In this document: piece after piece, positions 37,643 through 49,771 of the stretch | How positions within the stretch are numbered: the stretch's first letter is position 1 | Layout: every line of letters begins with the position of its first letter | Assembly: GCA_950072105.1 (NCBI GenBank) | Contig: CATMOE010000009.1 | Location: 1 to 64,000 of the forward strand | Direction of reading: 5' to 3' | DNA length: 64,000 bases | DNA from: an uncultured Dehalococcoidia bacterium | Lineage (GTDB): Bacteria; Chloroflexota; Dehalococcoidia; Lucifugimonadales; UBA3495 | Notes under the pieces: generated by a model | Database searches by the model: none | What the model was told of the DNA's origin: nothing | What the model saw: the letters and a program-made list of their open reading frames with translations, nothing else | Translations under genes and position numbers: made by a program

Positions 37643-38377
37643 TTGGACACATCAACCTTTCGCGGTGCGCTCTTGACCTCAGATTTCAGATCATTCAGTC
37701 CCATTGAACTGGTACGCAGGCGATGTTCCGGCGTAGCAAGGGATTGGCTTGACCGAATGGTTTCCCGAATCGAATCGCCTTTGGACCGTAACATCTTTGG
37801 GGCGGCCTATGCGGGAGCCCGCCGCCGTCTCGGTGGTGAACCGGTAGTCTTGGACGCGGAGGAACAGGCCGCCCTGAAAGGTACAGGGCTGCTTTCTCTA
37901 AGTGGGCATTCTCTCGACGAAGTTTGCCGCATCGCCCTGCTAGTGCGGACTTCGGAGTGTCTGCCGCCCGAGGATTATTCGTCCTTCATAAGTGAGTTGT
38001 ATATCCGGGGCGACAACTTCGAACGGCAGGCCCTGCTCAGAGGACTGACCTATTTGCCGGACCCGGAACAGTTTCTCTCCACCGCCATCGAAGCTTGCCG
38101 CACCAGTGTCCAACTCATCTTTGAAGCCATCGCCTGCGACAACCCTTACCCGTTCCGTTACTTCCCGGAGTTGAACTACAACCAGATGGTCCTCAAAGCC
38201 CTCTTTATCGGCTCTCCATTGGCGAGATTAGTAGGACTTGAGGAGCGAATCACCCCTGAACTCGTCCGCATGGCGGAAGACTACGCCACCGAGCGGCAGG
38301 CTGCCGGCCGGCCGGTGCCGGAAGATATCCCACTGTTTATCACTAATGATTTGGGAGCTAGGAATGAAGCTTTTTGA
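37643..38377 (+). CDS. eboA: EboA-domain protein
   Basis: LY..GD..ER.A.LR.L, EACRT, AIA.DNPYP, NQMVLKALF and ERQAAGRPVP.D motifs. Start uncertain; overlaps the downstream TatD-like gene. Confidence 0.8.
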   Translation: MDTSTFRGALLTSDFRSFSPIELVRRRCSGVARDWLDRMVSRIESPLDRNIFGAAYAGARRRLGGEPVVLDAEEQAALKGTGLLSLSGHSLDEVCRIALLVRTSECLPPEDYSSFISELYIRGDNFERQALLRGLTYLPDPEQFLSTAIEACRTSVQLIFEAIACDNPYPFRYFPELNYNQMVLKALFIGSPLARLVGLEERITPELVRMAEDYATERQAAGRPVPEDIPLFITNDLGARNEAF

Positions 38378-39236
38378 CCCTCACATACATATGACGTCGC
38401 GGCCTACATCCGACTACCAGGCAATGGCCGACGCAGGTATCTCTGCTATCGTTGAGCCGTCCTTCTGGTTGGGCCAGCCCCGGACTCATGTTGGTACCTT
38501 TGAAGACTATTTCCTTTCCCTCCTGGGTTGGGAGCGTTTTCGGGCCAGCCAGTTTGGCATATCCCACTTCTGCACCCTGTCGATCAACCCCAAGGAGGCT
38601 AACAGTCCTTCGATAGCGCAGGGTGTGTTGGACCTGTTGCCGCGATACCTGGAAAAGGACGGCGTGGTCGCGGTCGGCGAGATCGGCTTCGACGATCAGA
38701 CTGATGCCGAAGAGCACCTATTTGCCGAACCGTTAAAGCTGGCGATGGAGTTCGAACTGCCAGTGCTCATTCACACCCCACATCGAGATAAGAAACGGGG
38801 CACGGCGCGGAGCCTGGAATTAGTTAGAAGGGTTGGGTTTCCTGAACAACGAGTCCTCATAGACCATAATAACGAAGAGACACTGCCTATGGTCCTGGAA
38901 ACCAACTGTTGGGCGGGGCACTCCATTTACCCTGACACCAAGATGGACGAACTTCGAATGGTGGCGCTGATTCAGACGTATGGCAGTGACCGGATCATCA
39001 TTAACAGCGCCGCCGACTGGGGAGTCAGCGATCCATTTAAAGTGCCCAAAACCGTCGAGGCTATGTATGAGGCCGGGCTCGATGAGAAGACTATCCAGAC
39101 GGTGGTCTGGGACAACCCGGTAGCGTTCTTCGGCCAGAGCGAACGCCTGGATCTGGATAGAGATCCCATCGACCAAAGCCAGCTATGGGAGGGCAATTCC
39201 GTCCTGCGCGGCCAAGAGCCTGTTGTCGAGTCGTAG
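38364..39236 (+). CDS. eboB: TatD-family hydrolase, EboB type
   Basis: FDPHIHMTSR, EP.FWLGQPRT, GWERFRASQFGI, HTPHRDK and NSAADWGVSDP motifs. Confidence 0.85.
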   Translation: MKLFDPHIHMTSRPTSDYQAMADAGISAIVEPSFWLGQPRTHVGTFEDYFLSLLGWERFRASQFGISHFCTLSINPKEANSPSIAQGVLDLLPRYLEKDGVVAVGEIGFDDQTDAEEHLFAEPLKLAMEFELPVLIHTPHRDKKRGTARSLELVRRVGFPEQRVLIDHNNEETLPMVLETNCWAGHSIYPDTKMDELRMVALIQTYGSDRIIINSAADWGVSDPFKVPKTVEAMYEAGLDEKTIQTVVWDNPVAFFGQSERLDLDRDPIDQSQLWEGNSVLRGQEPVVES

Positions 39237-39404
39237 GATCAGCGAACGCGACGCACCGTTGTCTTCGACGTGGTTCGAATTAAATCGACGCAGAATCCAC
39301 CGGTTGCCTAGTCATGAATTCCCCCTACCGTGGCAAATCGACAGGCCTAGCGGCCTATGCTAGACTGACTCAAATCGGTCAAACAATAGACGAGGTTTCT
39401 ACGC

Positions 39405-40325
39405 ATGAAAAAGGTAGTCAGCGAAATCAGCGGGGTGGTGTTCAGCCTGCCTTGGCTGGTGGCCAAAGACAACGGTCTGTTCGAGGCCGAGGGCATCGAC
39501 ATGGAGTTCGTTAAGGCCATCAGGACCGGCCCGGTGGAGCACACCGAGAACCCGGAAGACGTTAATCCCATTCTGGGGCACGTCGCCTTCGAACAGGGAC
39601 AGGTGTCCATCTACCGCGCTTGAGAAGAGGGTCAGGTCCGTCGGGCCTATGAAAGCAAACAAGGGGCCAGGATAATCGCATTGCGTTCCGCGGTGGCCAG
39701 CCAGGCCATCATGGTGCCCCCAGACTCGCCCCACAACTACCCGGGCACCTTGGGGAACCAACCCGTCGCGGTAAATTTCCACGCCGGGTCCCACTACGTT
39801 GGATTGCGATTGCTGGAAGGTTACCTGCCGGTGGAGAAGATTAAACTGGTGCACTACGGGTCGCCGATCCATCGCTTCGAGTCCATGCTCAACGGAGAAG
39901 TCGCGGCGGCGGTGGTGATGGAGCCCTGGATCGCCCTGGGAGAGAAACTGGGTTGCAAGACCGTGGCCGAGGGTCACTACCTGGGCGCGGAGAACGCCAG
40001 CGAAGACATGGACGAAGAGACCTTCGCTGCGATCAACCGGGCGGTGGAGAACGCCGTAGACCTGATCAACGCGGACAAGCGAAAGTACCTGCACTACCTC
40101 ATCGACGACCCCAGCTTCGCCCAGGCTGCCGCTAAATACGGCGGGTTGACACCCGAAGACTTCCACCTGCCCCGCCTGCGGTACACCAGGCCGGCCGTGT
40201 ATACGGACGAGATGGTGGAGGACACGTACAATTGGCTGACACGTTGGGGATTGCTCAGCGATCTGGCTTGCTCCGCCGACCTGGTGGACAACCGTATCGC
40301 CGAGCCGGCGTCCGCCGACGACTGA
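39405..40325 (+). CDS. NMT1/THI5-like solute-binding-fold protein with an in-frame TGA (candidate selenoprotein)
   Basis: ORFs 39405-39623 and 39681-40325 share a frame and are separated only by TGA 39621-39623. LPWLVAKDNGLFEAEGID, GEVAAAVVMEPW and AEKLG are PBP2-like motifs; a SECIS-like hairpin follows the TGA. Confidence 0.75.
39634..39648 (+). promoter_or_regulatory. Putative bacterial SECIS hairpin
   Basis: aggtcc-GTC-gggcct: 6-bp stem including one G.U pair; the loop starts with G at +17 after the UGA. Confidence 0.5.
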
Positions 40326-45332: not shown

Positions 45333-45770
45333 AGAAACGGACCGCAAGAAACGGACAGCTTCACTGTCCTTCTCGTAGTTCGCCGCTGACGCTCAGGATT
45401 TGTCACGCCCCGATCAATGCCACCCTTGCCAGCAGGCCAAATCCATTTCAAGCCGAGGTTGCTGGAAACCCACGTCTTAACGCGGGTTTCAGCTAACTTG
45501 CCACCTCGCCGCAATCTTCCGGCCACCGTCTATTGTGGAAACGAGTCGACCATCCCTCAGATTTGAGAGATGCCATTCCTGATACCCACTATTCCGTCCA
45601 ATCTTCGAATAATCATGCGGTATCTGTATCATAGTTATCGATAAACCCTCGAATATATTCACCTACAGCAGGTCACATTGACTCTTCCTAGGGCATCTGC
45701 TAGACTGGGCCGCCGAATAAGCGCCTACACCAGACTGACTCCGCCGACAAGCACTATGGAGGTTCTCTTG

Positions 45771-47756
45771 ATGGGTAATCACTGGTTAAGTCCTAAAATT
45801 TTAATCTACGTATCGCTCCTGTTACTTCTGTCACTCGCCGTGGCCTGCGGAGGAACCTCCGCGGAGCCTCAGATTATTGAAAGAGAAGTGATTGTGGAGA
45901 AAGAGGTCATCAAGGAGGTACCTGTAGAAAAGCAGGTAATCGTGCGGGAGGAGGTCATTAGGGAAATCATCAAAGAGGTCCCGGTAGAGAAAGAAGTAAT
46001 AAGGGAAGTTATTAGGGAAGTTATCAAAGAGGTCCCGGTGGAAATCGTGGTGGAGAGGATGATAGTACCCACCGCGCAACCTATAGTAAAAGCGGGATCT
46101 CTGGCAGGATTTCCTAAAGCCGGAGAGAACGGCGTTCCGAAGTCGGTGGGCAAGCTCACCATGGCGACGGATAGCTGGGGAGGCAGTGACCTCAACCCGT
46201 GGCAGCTCTCGGGCACGACCTTTCTACAAGACCTGTTCAACCTTTCTATCATGCGGCAGGCCCCCAACGGGGACATAGCCGCCTATTGGGCCGAAACCTT
46301 TGAGCAGGACGAAGAGGGAATCACTTTTAAGCTCAACCCCAAGGCCAAGTTCCAAGACGGCAGCCCCGCCGATGCGCAAGCGCTTTATGACAATTTCCAG
46401 GCCATCGGGTGGGACTGGAAAAAGTACGGCTACGAAAACCCCAGTTGGACCAGTGGCCGGACCAAGACCAATATAGAGTCCATGGAAGTTATCAGTCCCA
46501 CGGAGCTCCGCATCACGACCAAGGGCCCCAAGCCCATATTTATGTGGGAACTGGGTGGCAACGGCTACCATGGATGGTGGGCCGGAAACCCGGCGACTCT
46601 CAAGAAAGGGCAAGAAGAATACCTCAAAGACCCCCTGGGAGGCGGCCCCTTCAGTATAGCCGAATGGGATCCGGGAACTCGGATCGTCTTGGACCGGTGG
46701 GACGACTTCTGGGCTGATTACGAGTGGTACCACGCGCCCCAGTACGAACAGTTAGAGCTGCTGACCGTGCCGGACCACGCCGCCCGCTTTGCTCTCTTGA
46801 AGAGCGAGCAGGCCGACATGGTCTACAACGTCCCGTGGCCCGTCGCAAAGGGCCTGGTCCGTTCTGAGGATTTTAAGCGAGGGATAAATCCAGAGAAAGG
46901 AGACCTCTGGACCCAGACCTATCTGGCCAATGGAATGCTGGTACTGGATTTCAATCTAGCCTACCGGCTGAGGCAATCTAAGTATCCTGAGGGCCGGGTG
47001 GACAAAGGTGATGTTAAGATCAACTACTTCGCCTACCCGGAGGGGTTCGAAAAAGACCCCACTCTGGACAGCCGGGTACGGCAAGCGTTGAGCCTGGCCA
47101 TCGACAGGCAGGCGATCTCCAAGGGGCCCCACTTCGGAATGTCCTTCCCCATCGGGTCTATCTGGCACGCTGGCTCCTTCGGCGCCAGGGAGGAAGTAGT
47201 TTTCAACCCCTCTCCCTACAATCCTGAGAGAGCCAAGCAACTCCTGGCTGAAGCTGGGTACGCCGATGGCTTTGAGATTACCGGTCACTTCGGCCAGTTC
47301 GCCGGCCGGCCCGGCATTCCCGAGGCCGTTGACGCCATCTCCAGCTACTGGCAGGACATTGGAGTTAAGGTAACCTGGGAGGAGCACGACCCATCGGACT
47401 TCGTCAATGGTTTCCGGTTCAACAGACTTAAGTGGACGCAAGTGTCCCTCAGGACCTGGGGCCGTCAAGACAACAGCGGACGGGAAGCCGTTTTGTACCG
47501 GCCCTCGTCGGGATATACAGGGGTCACGACTCCAGATATTGTAGACCTGACCTTCGTCCTCCAGCGGACCACCGATGTTGAAGAACAGGAGCGGCTGCTC
47601 GCTGAGATAGAGGACAGGGTGTTGGCCCTGAACGAGACATTCCCCTTGTATGGAATGACTCTGGTGATGGGTTACACAGACCGGGTGCTGGCTCACCCCA
47701 CGGTGAAGTTCTCGCCCCACTTCAAGCACCTTGATCTGATCACGCTCCGGGACTAA
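45771..47756 (+). CDS. Family-5 ABC solute-binding lipoprotein
   Basis: Lipobox AVAC, long EV/KEV repeat linker, FQDGSP, GGGPF, RVRQALSLAIDR and YNPERAKQLLAEAGY motifs. Confidence 0.9.
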   Translation: MGNHWLSPKILIYVSLLLLLSLAVACGGTSAEPQIIEREVIVEKEVIKEVPVEKQVIVREEVIREIIKEVPVEKEVIREVIREVIKEVPVEIVVERMIVPTAQPIVKAGSLAGFPKAGENGVPKSVGKLTMATDSWGGSDLNPWQLSGTTFLQDLFNLSIMRQAPNGDIAAYWAETFEQDEEGITFKLNPKAKFQDGSPADAQALYDNFQAIGWDWKKYGYENPSWTSGRTKTNIESMEVISPTELRITTKGPKPIFMWELGGNGYHGWWAGNPATLKKGQEEYLKDPLGGGPFSIAEWDPGTRIVLDRWDDFWADYEWYHAPQYEQLELLTVPDHAARFALLKSEQADMVYNVPWPVAKGLVRSEDFKRGINPEKGDLWTQTYLANGMLVLDFNLAYRLRQSKYPEGRVDKGDVKINYFAYPEGFEKDPTLDSRVRQALSLAIDRQAISKGPHFGMSFPIGSIWHAGSFGAREEVVFNPSPYNPERAKQLLAEAGYADGFEITGHFGQFAGRPGIPEAVDAISSYWQDIGVKVTWEEHDPSDFVNGFRFNRLKWTQVSLRTWGRQDNSGREAVLYRPSSGYTGVTTPDIVDLTFVLQRTTDVEEQERLLAEIEDRVLALNETFPLYGMTLVMGYTDRVLAHPTVKFSPHFKHLDLITLRD

Positions 47757-47802
47757 TCTGAAACCGGTTCGACAGATTCAAACTCAGTTGGTGACATGGT
47801 GA

Positions 47803-47841
47803 ATCCACAGGGACGCCGGCGATGTTGGCGTCCCTGTGGAT
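47803..47841. terminator. Long hairpin between the SBP and permease genes
   Basis: atccacagggacgcc...ggcgtccctgtggat (15-bp perfect stem). Confidence 0.6.
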
Positions 47842-47917
47842 CGCCTTAATAGTGACGCCTATGAAATGCTTGATTCGTCATATGCTTATCTGACGTTATC
47901 GGGCGGGGGAGCTAAAG

Positions 47918-48853
47918 TTGGGCCGTTACATCATTACGAGAATACTACAGGGAGTAATCACGCTGTGGCTGATTAGCGTGGCTGTCTTCTTCATTCTGCG
48001 GCTAGGTGGCGGCAATCCCATCGACTACATGCTGCCCGAGGATGCGACCCCCGAAGATTATCAGTTGATGACCGAGTCTTATGGATTTGACAAGCCCATA
48101 ATCGAGCAGTACTGGATCTACAATCTAAATCTGATGCAGGGTGACCTGGGCAATGCCATGGCTTTTGACCGGCGGCCCACCGTGGAAGTAGTCTGGGAAC
48201 GGCTCCCCGCATCTCTACACCTGGGCGGTACGGCGCTGGTTATCGCCATAGTATTAGGAGTTACCGTTGGGGCGGTGTCGGCGTCCAAGCCCGATTCTCT
48301 CTTCGACCGCTTGGGCAAGATTCTAGCAATCTCCGCCCAGTCCATGCCCATTTTCTGGGTGGGCATTTTGCTGATTCTTCTGTTTAGCGTCTACCTCGGA
48401 TGGCTGCCCAGCGCTGGCGCAGTCGACGGTTTAGCGATTAAACGGTTGATATTGCCCGCAACGTCTCTGGGATTTTTCCTGATCGCATCGCACATGCGAA
48501 TAACCCGTTCCACCATGCTGGAAGTCCTAGAGTCGGACTACATCAAGATGGTCCGGGCCAAGGGCCTTCCGCCGCGCATGGTCCTCTGGAAGCACGCATT
48601 CAAGAACGCGTCCATACCCGTGTTCACCCTGTTCTTTGTAAATTTCGCCGGCCTCATCTCGGGCGCGGTGATAACCGAGACTATTTTTTCCTGGCCGGGA
48701 GTGGGACGTTTGCTGGTCGACTCCTTGATTCAGCGCGACTATCCGACGACTCAGGCGGTCATATTTTTCTCAGCCGCTTTTGTTTTGTGCGTAAACATTT
48801 TTGTTGACGTGATGTACGCCTGGCTCGACCCTCGCATACGAGTGGCCCGGTAA
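47918..48853 (+). CDS. ABC permease, DppB/OppB type
   Basis: GDLG, P.FW, TRSTMLEVLESDYIKMVRAKGL and LDPRIR motifs. Confidence 0.93.
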   Translation: MGRYIITRILQGVITLWLISVAVFFILRLGGGNPIDYMLPEDATPEDYQLMTESYGFDKPIIEQYWIYNLNLMQGDLGNAMAFDRRPTVEVVWERLPASLHLGGTALVIAIVLGVTVGAVSASKPDSLFDRLGKILAISAQSMPIFWVGILLILLFSVYLGWLPSAGAVDGLAIKRLILPATSLGFFLIASHMRITRSTMLEVLESDYIKMVRAKGLPPRMVLWKHAFKNASIPVFTLFFVNFAGLISGAVITETIFSWPGVGRLLVDSLIQRDYPTTQAVIFFSAAFVLCVNIFVDVMYAWLDPRIRVAR

Positions 48854-48871
48854 CCGAAGGGAGCTATTGCA

Positions 48872-49771
48872 ATGCTAAGAGGCGCCGACAACGAACTGAT
48901 TTTACGCCGGCCATGGAGGATCACAGCGGTTATACCGAAACCCGTGCGACGGGTTAACTCGGCGCTCCGTGGCGCTCCCAAGCTTTCCTTGCTCTTCATC
49001 GTGTTTGCCCTTTTATGCGCTGCCTTTGCTCCGGTCATAGCCCCTTACGACCCCATTAAAACCGATTTCTCGGCCATCCTTGAAACGCCGAGCTCCGCAC
49101 ATTGGATGGGGGCCGACAACCAAGGCCGGGATATCCTTAGCCGCACGATTTATGGAGCCCGTATCTCGGTGAGGATCGCGGTCATCGCGGTCTTCCTGGC
49201 GGCCAGTGTAGGTACCCTAGTTGCGCTCGTCGCCGGAGTGTTCAGGGGTTGGGTAGATACGGTCTTAATGCGCATCACCGACGGATTCATGGCGCTTCCC
49301 TACCTGATGGTGGCGCTCATGGTGGTTTCCCTGATGGGCGCCAGCATAACCAATGTGATCCTGGTGATCGGGCTCTTGCGTTGGATGGGATTCGCCCGCG
49401 TGATAAGGGGCGAGGTGCTTCGATTGATGGAGTCGGATTTCGTGCGCCTGGCTAGGGTCGCGGGAGCCAGCCGTTCCCGTATCATGTTCCGGCACATCTT
49501 TCCCAACGTAATCAACACTTTGCTGGTTCTGTTAACGCTGGAGATAGGCCTGGCGGTAATCACCGAGTCGTCTCTTAGCTTCTTGGGGCTGGGAGTCCCA
49601 AGGCCCGAACCTTCCTGGGGCAGCATGCTCCGTGACGCCCAGCAGTACATCTACATCGCCTGGTGGTCGCCGGTGTTTGCCGGACTGGCCATAACCATGC
49701 TGGTTATGTCCTGCAATCTTGTAGGGGATTGGCTGCGGGACCGGACCGACCCTACCCGGCGGCAATTGTAA
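48872..49771 (+). CDS. ABC permease, DppC/OppC type
   Basis: HWMGADNQGRDILSR, ESSLSFLGLG and PSWGSML motifs. Confidence 0.93.
   Translation: MLRGADNELILRRPWRITAVIPKPVRRVNSALRGAPKLSLLFIVFALLCAAFAPVIAPYDPIKTDFSAILETPSSAHWMGADNQGRDILSRTIYGARISVRIAVIAVFLAASVGTLVALVAGVFRGWVDTVLMRITDGFMALPYLMVALMVVSLMGASITNVILVIGLLRWMGFARVIRGEVLRLMESDFVRLARVAGASRSRIMFRHIFPNVINTLLVLLTLEIGLAVITESSLSFLGLGVPRPEPSWGSMLRDAQQYIYIAWWSPVFAGLAITMLVMSCNLVGDWLRDRTDPTRRQL

Follow-up and report, generated by a model that had tools for sequence, protein, structure and literature searches.

Does the TGA at positions 39621-39623 of this DNA end a short gene, or does it lie within a longer gene that encodes a selenoprotein? The codon stands in a stretch of 64,000 nucleotides (nt) from an uncultured Dehalococcoidia bacterium (contig CATMOE010000009.1 of assembly GCA_950072105.1), referred to throughout as the window. 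Translation gives a frame on the plus strand that runs from an ATG at 39405 to a terminal TGA at 40323-40325, 306 codons with a single in-frame TGA at codon 73, where the protein context is ...VSIYRA-U-EEGQVRRAY.... Under translation table 11 the same frame is called as two open reading frames (ORFs), 39405..39623 (72 amino acids) and 39681..40325 (214 amino acids, TTG start). An earlier note on this locus had joined the two ORFs across one TGA into a 306-codon protein and described the 19 codons between them as open and protein-like; translation of the window confirms both points. Our analysis suggests that this is very probably one intact selenoprotein gene, whose UGA 73 would be decoded as selenocysteine (Sec). 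The features that carry this reading are as follows.

39405..40325, plus strand: a single coding sequence (CDS), 306 codons and the terminal TGA, predicted to encode a cytoplasmic selenoprotein of the SsuA/TauA/THI5 fold (translation, coding evolution, one continuous fold)
39621..39623, plus strand: TGA, very probably read as Sec, residue 73 (conserved TGA, cysteine in relatives)
39624..39680, plus strand: 19 codons separating the TGA from the TTG at which gene callers start the second piece (amino-acid conservation, structural model)
39633..39648, plus strand: a candidate selenocysteine insertion sequence (SECIS-like element), the near-invariant 16-nt block CAGGUCCGUCGGGCCU containing a hairpin (frozen synonymous sites, minimum free energy, published model constraints, the genome's other selenoprotein genes)

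Conservation of the TGA codon

To catalogue the codon beyond the window, genomes were scanned at one per species, yielding 80 related loci in records titled mostly Dehalococcoidia, SAR202 cluster or Chloroflexota. TGA occupies the aligned codon in 78 of the 80, at 73-99% identity, and the two remaining loci, the most distant at 53% and 51% identity, feature TGC and TGT respectively. A metagenome scan, run with a closer alignment of the family, added 80 further loci: 20 with TGA, 48 with TGC or TGT, and 12 that the search pattern did not match, some of them visibly partial. Protein databases hold the gene mostly in pieces. Among the best 120 of 769 matching clusters, which were examined for coverage of the codon-73 column, 75 (62-99% identity) all start past it, at query positions 90-121, and the 45 that cover it lie at 47-54% identity; one 72-residue piece terminates exactly at ...SIYRA. 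The pieces are named 'hypothetical protein', 'ABC transporter substrate-binding protein' or 'NitT/TauT family'.

The codons after the TGA evolve as protein-coding sequence. Across the 78 orthologs, the synonymous share of codon differences from the window is 0.62 before the TGA, 0.87 in the next 19 codons and 0.59 in the rest of the gene, and 16 of these 19 codons are conserved at the amino-acid level in at least 90% of 79 orthologs. In the predicted model the same 19 codons form a helix (74-83) and a strand (89-93).

The TGA was also sought in sequencing libraries, as the earlier note had advised. Four libraries from different studies, two of DNA and two of RNA, have contigs here, and none shows another letter at 39621-39623; this evidence consists of contigs, and thus speaks for presence only, not for expression level. 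No single RNA contig in the four runs examined spans the TGA with 31 letters on both sides. The exact gene is present in 19 runs from 14 studies, six of them RNA libraries. In the assembly graphs of four runs (X2, X10, X14 and X15) a short node at approximately 39618-39649, comprising the TGA and the hairpin, has 2.5-4x the depth of its flanks and contigs break there, probably because many co-occurring strains share an identical stretch.

The family is patchily distributed, with 8 of 301 sampled genomes of the class matching at E <= 1e-40; at this threshold there was no match in the one sampled genome of the window's own taxonomic family, nor in the sampled genomes of its order. Three records with the TGA gene carry other titles (L027, Gemmatimonadetes; L029, Nitrospinota; L070, Ramlibacter), although the genes themselves fall within the Dehalococcoidia clade; possible explanations are mis-binning or gene transfer.

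Cysteine in the aligned column

If codon 73 encodes Sec, its homologs should feature cysteine (Cys) or TGA in this column rather than tryptophan (Trp), arginine (Arg), glycine (Gly) or serine (Ser), a distinction that the earlier note had drawn in advance. Cys or TGA is what was found. In the first alignment, 19 of 19 full-length homologs have Cys, within the motif YRA-C-EWGQ(V/I)RR, and C73 is the sole invariant column among 43 relatives at 25-54% identity. All five paralogs in the same genome (29-40% identity) feature Cys, as do 125 of the 129 database proteins that align over the column; the other four (P0173, P0197, P0251 and P0266) are visibly frameshifted or chimeric predictions. The Cys motif that the earlier note had suggested for NMT1/THI5-like proteins, YxAC-E-xG, holds at least for this subfamily, where it reads CEWG.

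Sec and Cys have exchanged repeatedly within the family. In other genomes of the class, two divergent relatives have TGA in the same column, in the contexts FQA-U-ECGQIHR and FQG-U-ECGNNRR. Loci L114 (genome G106) and L118 (genome G030), approximately 40% identical to the window protein, feature U-E-C and a downstream hairpin with a CGUGUU loop, and represent separate Sec/Cys exchanges. A quickly built tree comprises 71 rows, of which 13 have Sec and 58 have Cys (L181 and L217 are left out). In it the main Sec clade forms one group (Shimodaira-Hasegawa-like approximate likelihood ratio test support 99), its sister is a pair in which one form has Sec and the other Cys, and both divergent Sec forms are placed among Cys forms; well-supported branches force at least three Sec/Cys changes. 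The residue two positions after codon 73 also changes. It is Trp in at least 90% of 43 aligned sequences; the main Sec clade and its Cys sister P0125 have glutamate (Glu) there, and both divergent Sec forms have Cys. The change may reflect either chemistry or decoding context.

The SECIS-like hairpin

The 16-nt block at 39633-39648 contains the hairpin AGGUCC-GUC-GGGCCU at 39634-39648, with arms at 39634-39639 and 39643-39648 and the loop GUC at 39640-39642. The loop-first G is the 17th base past the UGA, exactly where the earlier note had put it. In the bacterial SECIS model given in the Fig. 2 legend of PMC13188914, the loop measures 3-9 nt and the stem 4-16 base pairs (bp), one of the first two loop bases is a G, with G or U usually next, UGA and loop lie 16-37 nt apart, and the minimum free energy (MFE) is <= -7.5. 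With a 3-nt loop that begins GU, 6 bp, 16 nt of spacing and -7.6 kcal/mol, the hairpin falls within all four published constraints, in agreement with the fit that had been proposed for it.

Its synonymous sites are almost frozen. Codon entropy averages 1.10 bit over the 185 conserved degenerate codons of 79 distinct orthologous CDSs; only seven lie below 0.2 bit, and five of these are the consecutive hairpin codons 77-81 (Q V R R A). To control for constraint on the amino acids, the 12-mer that encodes QVRR was compared between Sec and Cys forms: 99 Sec sequences use two versions (94 and 5), versus nine versions in the 13 Cys homologs that encode QVRR. The sole variable base of the block is the middle loop base, U in 94 of 99 and G in 5 of 99.

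Comparable hairpins occur elsewhere in this genome. A scan for TGA-joined frames that required coding signal on both sides and a G-first hairpin returned 453 candidates, among which the window gene ranks first by coding score, and 26 passed a stricter filter. Among these, the genome's other selenoprotein genes have hairpins of the same type, with stems of 6-9 bp and loops of GUG, GUA, GUC, GUU, GGC or GGT that begin 19-23 nt from the U of the UGA. Across the genome, such a strict-type hairpin comes after 6 of the 826 TGA codons that end long frames and after 381 of 113,267 TGA triplets, rates that are descriptive only.

Selenocysteine machinery and other selenoprotein genes

The genome is a bin of 4.08 Mb in 164 contigs, 92% complete. 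A search for the Sec machinery, which the earlier note had named as a check, recovered tRNA-Sec (66.4 bits, anticodon tca by ARAGORN), selA (550 bits), selB (352 bits) and selD (385 bits). Because the window's genome is a bin, we also turned to relatives assembled as single chromosomes: all five that carry the TGA gene have, on that same chromosome, selB (319-362 bits, above cut-off) and a 93-nt tRNA-Sec (66-67.5 bits). In the window's genome selD is itself a selenoprotein gene (G000:C60:2148-3071), with a TGA at C60:2178 in the context SHCAG-U-AGK and a hairpin GGACCU-GGGUC-AGGUCC, whose loop GGGUC begins 29 nt from the U of the UGA.

Twenty of the other 25 strict candidates were compared with NCBIfam, omitting C78, C124, C44, C1:214039-214596 and C33:39122-40102, of which the first four are near-copies. 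A family match at E <= 1e-5 was found for 19 of the 20, and 11 score above the curated cut-off of a known selenoprotein family model: UGSC in seven, GrdB-type selenoprotein B in two, and AhpD-like TIGR01926 and an OsmC-related family in one each. The UGSC-family selenoprotein has at least nine paralogs here (L129, L131, L133, L137-L140, L142 and C1:214039-214596), and there are three GrdB/PrdB-like selenoprotein-B genes (L125, L130 and L143), with a further one at C78:4137-5420. The selenoproteome is large for a marine Chloroflexota-type genome; the BSepDB paper counts Dehalococcoidia metagenome-assembled genomes among the ten richest in selenoproteins.

A second gene may represent another unlisted selenoprotein family. 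In the thiolase-domain gene L127 (G000:C1:196468-197565) an in-frame TGA lies at C1:197308 in the context FYD-U-YT; the sequence on either side of it shows coding signal, and a 7-bp hairpin with a CGUGU loop lies downstream. Its best NCBIfam match is the acetyl-CoA acetyltransferase PRK06158 (258 bits, below cut-off), and thiolase is absent from the table of 119 selenoprotein families in PMC13188914.

Proposed decoding of UGA 73

SelB-directed insertion of Sec at UGA is established bacterial biology. At this locus, SelB carrying Sec-tRNA would bind the GUC-loop hairpin as the ribosome reaches UGA 73, so that Sec is inserted; the hairpin, which has a 6-bp stem, starts 13 nt from the U of the UGA and lies inside the coding sequence, would direct decoding as a minimal SECIS, and Sec73 would then serve where relatives use their one invariant Cys.

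Several observations weigh against this account. The genome bin is 6% contaminated, and the assignment derives from sequence and model rather than from protein-level data. The 99 Sec sequences are kin, and some metagenome loci may duplicate genome loci, so they do not count as independent. The hairpin is a borderline case in three of the four constraints of the published model (loop size, spacing and energy), and its MFE of -7.6 kcal/mol is no better than chance, as 66 of 200 shuffles fold equally well; a 76-nt stretch likewise shows no folding excess over shuffles (z 0.63). An Rfam scan of 39500-39800 at E <= 10 returned no SECIS family, just a chance match to a long noncoding RNA. Being invariant, the hairpin offers no compensatory covariation. 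The strict hairpin criteria were chosen with this genome's candidates already in view. The hairpin exceeds chance by its conservation, not by its folding energy.

Fold and location of the protein

AlphaFold2, run on the 43-sequence alignment, predicts one continuous fold across codon 73 (predicted local distance difference test 94.3, predicted template modeling score 0.91). Foldseek places it in a group of type II binding folds that comprises SsuA, TauA, ThiY, THI5, PqqT and DszB (E 1e-13 to 1e-14); the best template modeling (TM) scores, 0.73-0.78, are to SsuA at 12-18% identity, indicating a two-lobed type II binding fold. A profile comparison matches SsuA over residues 100-205 (E 5.7e-10), and a sequence search of the PDB gave weak matches to SsuA, TauA and 3qsl, none aligned across residue 73. 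No NCBIfam family was found for the window protein at E <= 0.1; some of its Cys relatives do have PF09084 or PF13379 in precomputed annotation, and in the ESM Atlas a natural Cys relative gave 'SsuA/THI5-like' names only.

The upstream sequence bears on where the protein resides, and three features lie there.

39338..39366, plus strand: promoter-like site TCGACA-17-TAGACT with TG before the second hexamer, approximately 39 nt 5' of the ATG (consensus scan only)
39387..39389, plus strand: in-frame TAG that closes the frame upstream, 18 nt 5' of the ATG (read from sequence)
39392..39395, plus strand: GAGG, Shine-Dalgarno-like in its presumed role, 9 nt 5' of the ATG (read from sequence)

The promoter consensus scan found three sites versus 0.4 expected in shuffles, and the site remains a predicted one. 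Because of the TAG the frame cannot begin earlier, which leaves no room for a signal peptide, and the first predicted strand already begins at residue 2; the absence of a signal peptide remarked in the earlier note is thereby upheld. Since the relatives begin at the same position as the window protein, the family is predicted to be cytoplasmic.

Residue 73 ends a predicted strand (69-73, strand 3), directly ahead of helix 74-83 (helix 3 of the first lobe). In such folds the ends of the lobe-1 strands and the N-termini of the helices that follow line the cleft, so residue 73 should face the pocket, opposite helix 128-138. The family residues G128-S129-H130-Y131 align with S-T-T-H-Y of TauA, a stretch that by our count presumably contains Thr132. 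The TauA paper reports that Gln30, together with main-chain amides from Gly61, Gly79 and Thr132, holds the sulfonate.

What the protein may do

A real selenoprotein with this fold could act in several ways. We put the chances about even that it is a cytoplasmic enzyme and not a transport component, with Sec73 as catalytic nucleophile or acid in the interdomain cleft, where it would act on a small, probably anionic, organic compound alongside neighboring oxidoreductases and decarboxylases that vary by genome. That it is an enzyme rather than a transporter is plausible because of the cytoplasmic location and the neighbors. Three points count against the enzyme: Pfam matches lie below their gathering cut-offs (NMT1_2 15.7 vs 24.7; NMT1 13.8 vs 20.5), synteny is weak, with the commonest neighbor family in only 32 of 78 loci, and no characterized relative was found.

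Two cytoplasmic enzymes of the same fold group invite comparison. The 2'-hydroxybiphenyl-2-sulfinate desulfinase DszB (PDB 2de2, 2de3) depends on a Cys in its cleft, and a PDB title names a C27S mutant. It stands at Foldseek rank 31 (TM 0.57-0.63), with a sequence match that is not significant (E 1.4). We take Cys27 to follow the first strand, not the third, and the two thiols are probably non-equivalent. The HMP-P (4-amino-5-hydroxymethyl-2-methylpyrimidine phosphate) synthase THI5 (PDB 4h65, 4h67), likewise a cytoplasmic enzyme built on a binding fold, and ThiY (3ix1) hold Foldseek ranks 1 and 11-15; they differ in that the sequence alignment is limited to the first ~32 residues (E 0.006). 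THI5 presumably uses lysine and histidine residues, not the Cys of the window family. Thiaminase I is a binding-fold enzyme with a cleft cysteine nucleophile, secreted and of the maltose-binding type. It would be the nearest mechanistic analogy for an enzyme here; it is not among the Foldseek rows listed.

A more specific version of the enzyme proposal is doubtful at present: this would be the first selenoenzyme on a periplasmic-binding-protein fold, a cytoplasmic SsuA-like protein of deep-ocean SAR202-type bacteria whose Sec73 attacks or protonates an organosulfur compound (sulfonate or sulfinate) or a similar anion, working with flavin monooxygenases, glucose-methanol-choline (GMC) oxidoreductases and enzymes that resemble sulfopyruvate decarboxylase.

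It is also possible, if only tentatively so, that the selenoprotein is real and non-catalytic, a cytoplasmic ligand-binding protein, carrier or sensor in which Sec73 contacts a metal, metalloid or thiol-reactive ligand. The closest solved folds by TM score are all binding proteins (SsuA, TauA, ThiY and PqqT), and PMC13188914 and 10.1101/2022.07.06.499078 propose a ligand-contact role for Sec in the binding-protein selenoproteins SaoB, SaoX and BtuF-like, describing it as probable; this very genome has a BtuF-like gene, L132, whose in-frame TGA stands in a CxxU context. However, the window protein lacks a signal peptide, no transporter, regulator or DNA-binding domain is attached or adjacent, and the neighbors are enzymes. 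A lone invariant Cys, unaccompanied by another conserved thiol in the main clade, would moreover make a weak metal site.

A redox role, with Sec73 as a peroxidatic or thiol-exchange center on a binding-fold scaffold, appears unlikely. Most selenoproteins are redox proteins, as PMC13188914 states; the U-E-C of the two divergent Sec members supplies a Cys two past Sec as a possible resolving partner, and a carboxymuconolactone decarboxylase (CMD)/AhpD-family gene follows one paralog pair. Yet the motif is U-E-E-G in the main Sec clade and C-E-W-G in the Cys forms, neither of which has another conserved Cys close by, and the fold bears no relation to redox folds of the thioredoxin-like or AhpD-like kind.

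Readings in which codon 73 is not Sec at all fare far worse. The UGA might be read as Trp, Cys or Arg by a near-cognate tRNA or a changed code, or regulated termination might yield mostly the short peptide. Against this, TGA is the terminal codon of the gene itself and of 826 long, well-scoring frames, which speaks for an unaltered genetic code; relatives have Cys at the aligned position, and the full Sec machinery and many known selenoprotein genes are present, making the proposal very improbable. Least credible is a plain stop, in a pseudogene or between two genes of 72 and 214 residues: gene callers and databases do split the frame in this way, into C-terminal pieces (75 of the best 120 clusters) and the 72-residue piece that ends ...SIYRA, but a nonsense mutation is not expected at one codon in 98 related loci with flanks and the next 19 codons under purifying selection, the fold needs both parts and the synonymous sites after the TGA are frozen, and both forms of the idea were rejected as contradicted by the conservation data. 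Even jointly, the plain-stop and recoding readings carry very little probability.

Relation to known selenoprotein families

The candidate selenoprotein shares features with several described systems and differs from each. The preprint 10.1101/2022.07.06.499078 describes SaoB/SaoX as selenoproteins of a periplasmic-binding-protein-type fold whose database entries are likewise split in two at the TGA; it also reports a CU motif and a signal sequence for SaoB, which shares its operon with a permease and an ATPase and occurs in strict anaerobes. The window protein differs from SaoB in its single U (YRA-U-EEG), in lacking a signal peptide or transporter, and in its marine Chloroflexota-type lineage. 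The earlier note had suspected that it is distinct from SaoB, and we concur: there is no match to NF040727, no CU motif (A-U-E instead), no signal peptide and no SAO-type transporter. The BtuF-like cobalamin-binding selenoprotein (CxxU) listed in PMC13188914 is also a binding-fold selenoprotein, with L132 as its TGA-CxxU copy in this genome, and differs in its Peripla_BP_2-type class and in the motif and its position. SsuA and TauA (PDB 3ksx, 3e4r, 2x26, 6ssy) are the best fold matches (TM 0.67-0.78) at 12-18% identity; unlike these, the window protein comes without signal peptide, permease or ATPase, and the available descriptions of SsuA/TauA mention no counterpart of its invariant Cys/Sec.

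The 2026 table of 119 prokaryotic selenoprotein families in PMC13188914 lists no SsuA/NMT1/THI5-like or NitT/TauT entry, and the window protein matches none of the NCBIfam models that exist for the unnamed 'hypothetical' families of the same source; the families of Haft and Tolstoy 2025 were compared through this table only. Full-text literature searches returned no description of the window family, and the main texts of the deep-Sep and BSepDB papers, supplements aside, do not mention it. A prior unlisted record, e.g. in BSepDB, is possible. Overall, this is very probably a selenoprotein family outside current published lists, with Cys homologs and a coding-region SECIS.

The prokaryotic selenoproteome thereby gains one family, in a lineage that the BSepDB paper notes as selenoprotein-rich. 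The family is abundant in marine metagenomes, where single 90%-identity clusters of its pieces have up to 592 member sequences, and since databases record the gene only as 'hypothetical' or 'ABC substrate-binding' fragments, its recognition corrects hundreds of annotations. Moreover, it pinpoints a single functional residue (U/C73) in an uncharacterized cytoplasmic branch of the SsuA/THI5 fold, and thus provides a handle on function. Should the organosulfur selenoenzyme prove true, selenium supply would be tied to the breakdown of recalcitrant dissolved organic matter.

Neighboring genes

The earlier note had seen no permease or ATPase beside the gene, which holds within about 5 kb of it; a family-5 peptide-type ABC (ATP-binding cassette) system with its own binding protein lies farther off in the window, at 45678-49771. 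No ABC permease or ATPase stands beside any of the five paralogs either. Neighbors vary by genome, and the synteny of the 78 loci reveals no universal partner gene. A luciferase-like monooxygenase is the most frequent neighbor; a GMC oxidoreductase just downstream, a PRK08266-type thiamine pyrophosphate (TPP) enzyme and a coenzyme A (CoA)-transferase III are each found in 17 of 78. A split TPP decarboxylase in 13 loci resembles sulfopyruvate or phosphonopyruvate decarboxylase (ComD/ComE or Ppd) at scores below all curated cut-offs, and is best regarded as a lead only.

Directly upstream of the gene in the window are an EboA-family gene (NF035938, 149.8 bits) and an overlapping TatD-like hydrolase (37643-39236). 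In the closest relatives, L025 and L026, a luciferase-like monooxygenase abuts the selenoprotein gene where the window has this pair, and the pair looks like a local insertion on this comparison. The most distant paralog, L147 (G000:C32, 5131-6033), is 29% identical, features its Cys within AACHWA, and lies approximately 1.8 kb from a TenA/THI-4 family gene on the same strand, a placement that hints at a thiamin-pyrimidine role for that branch.

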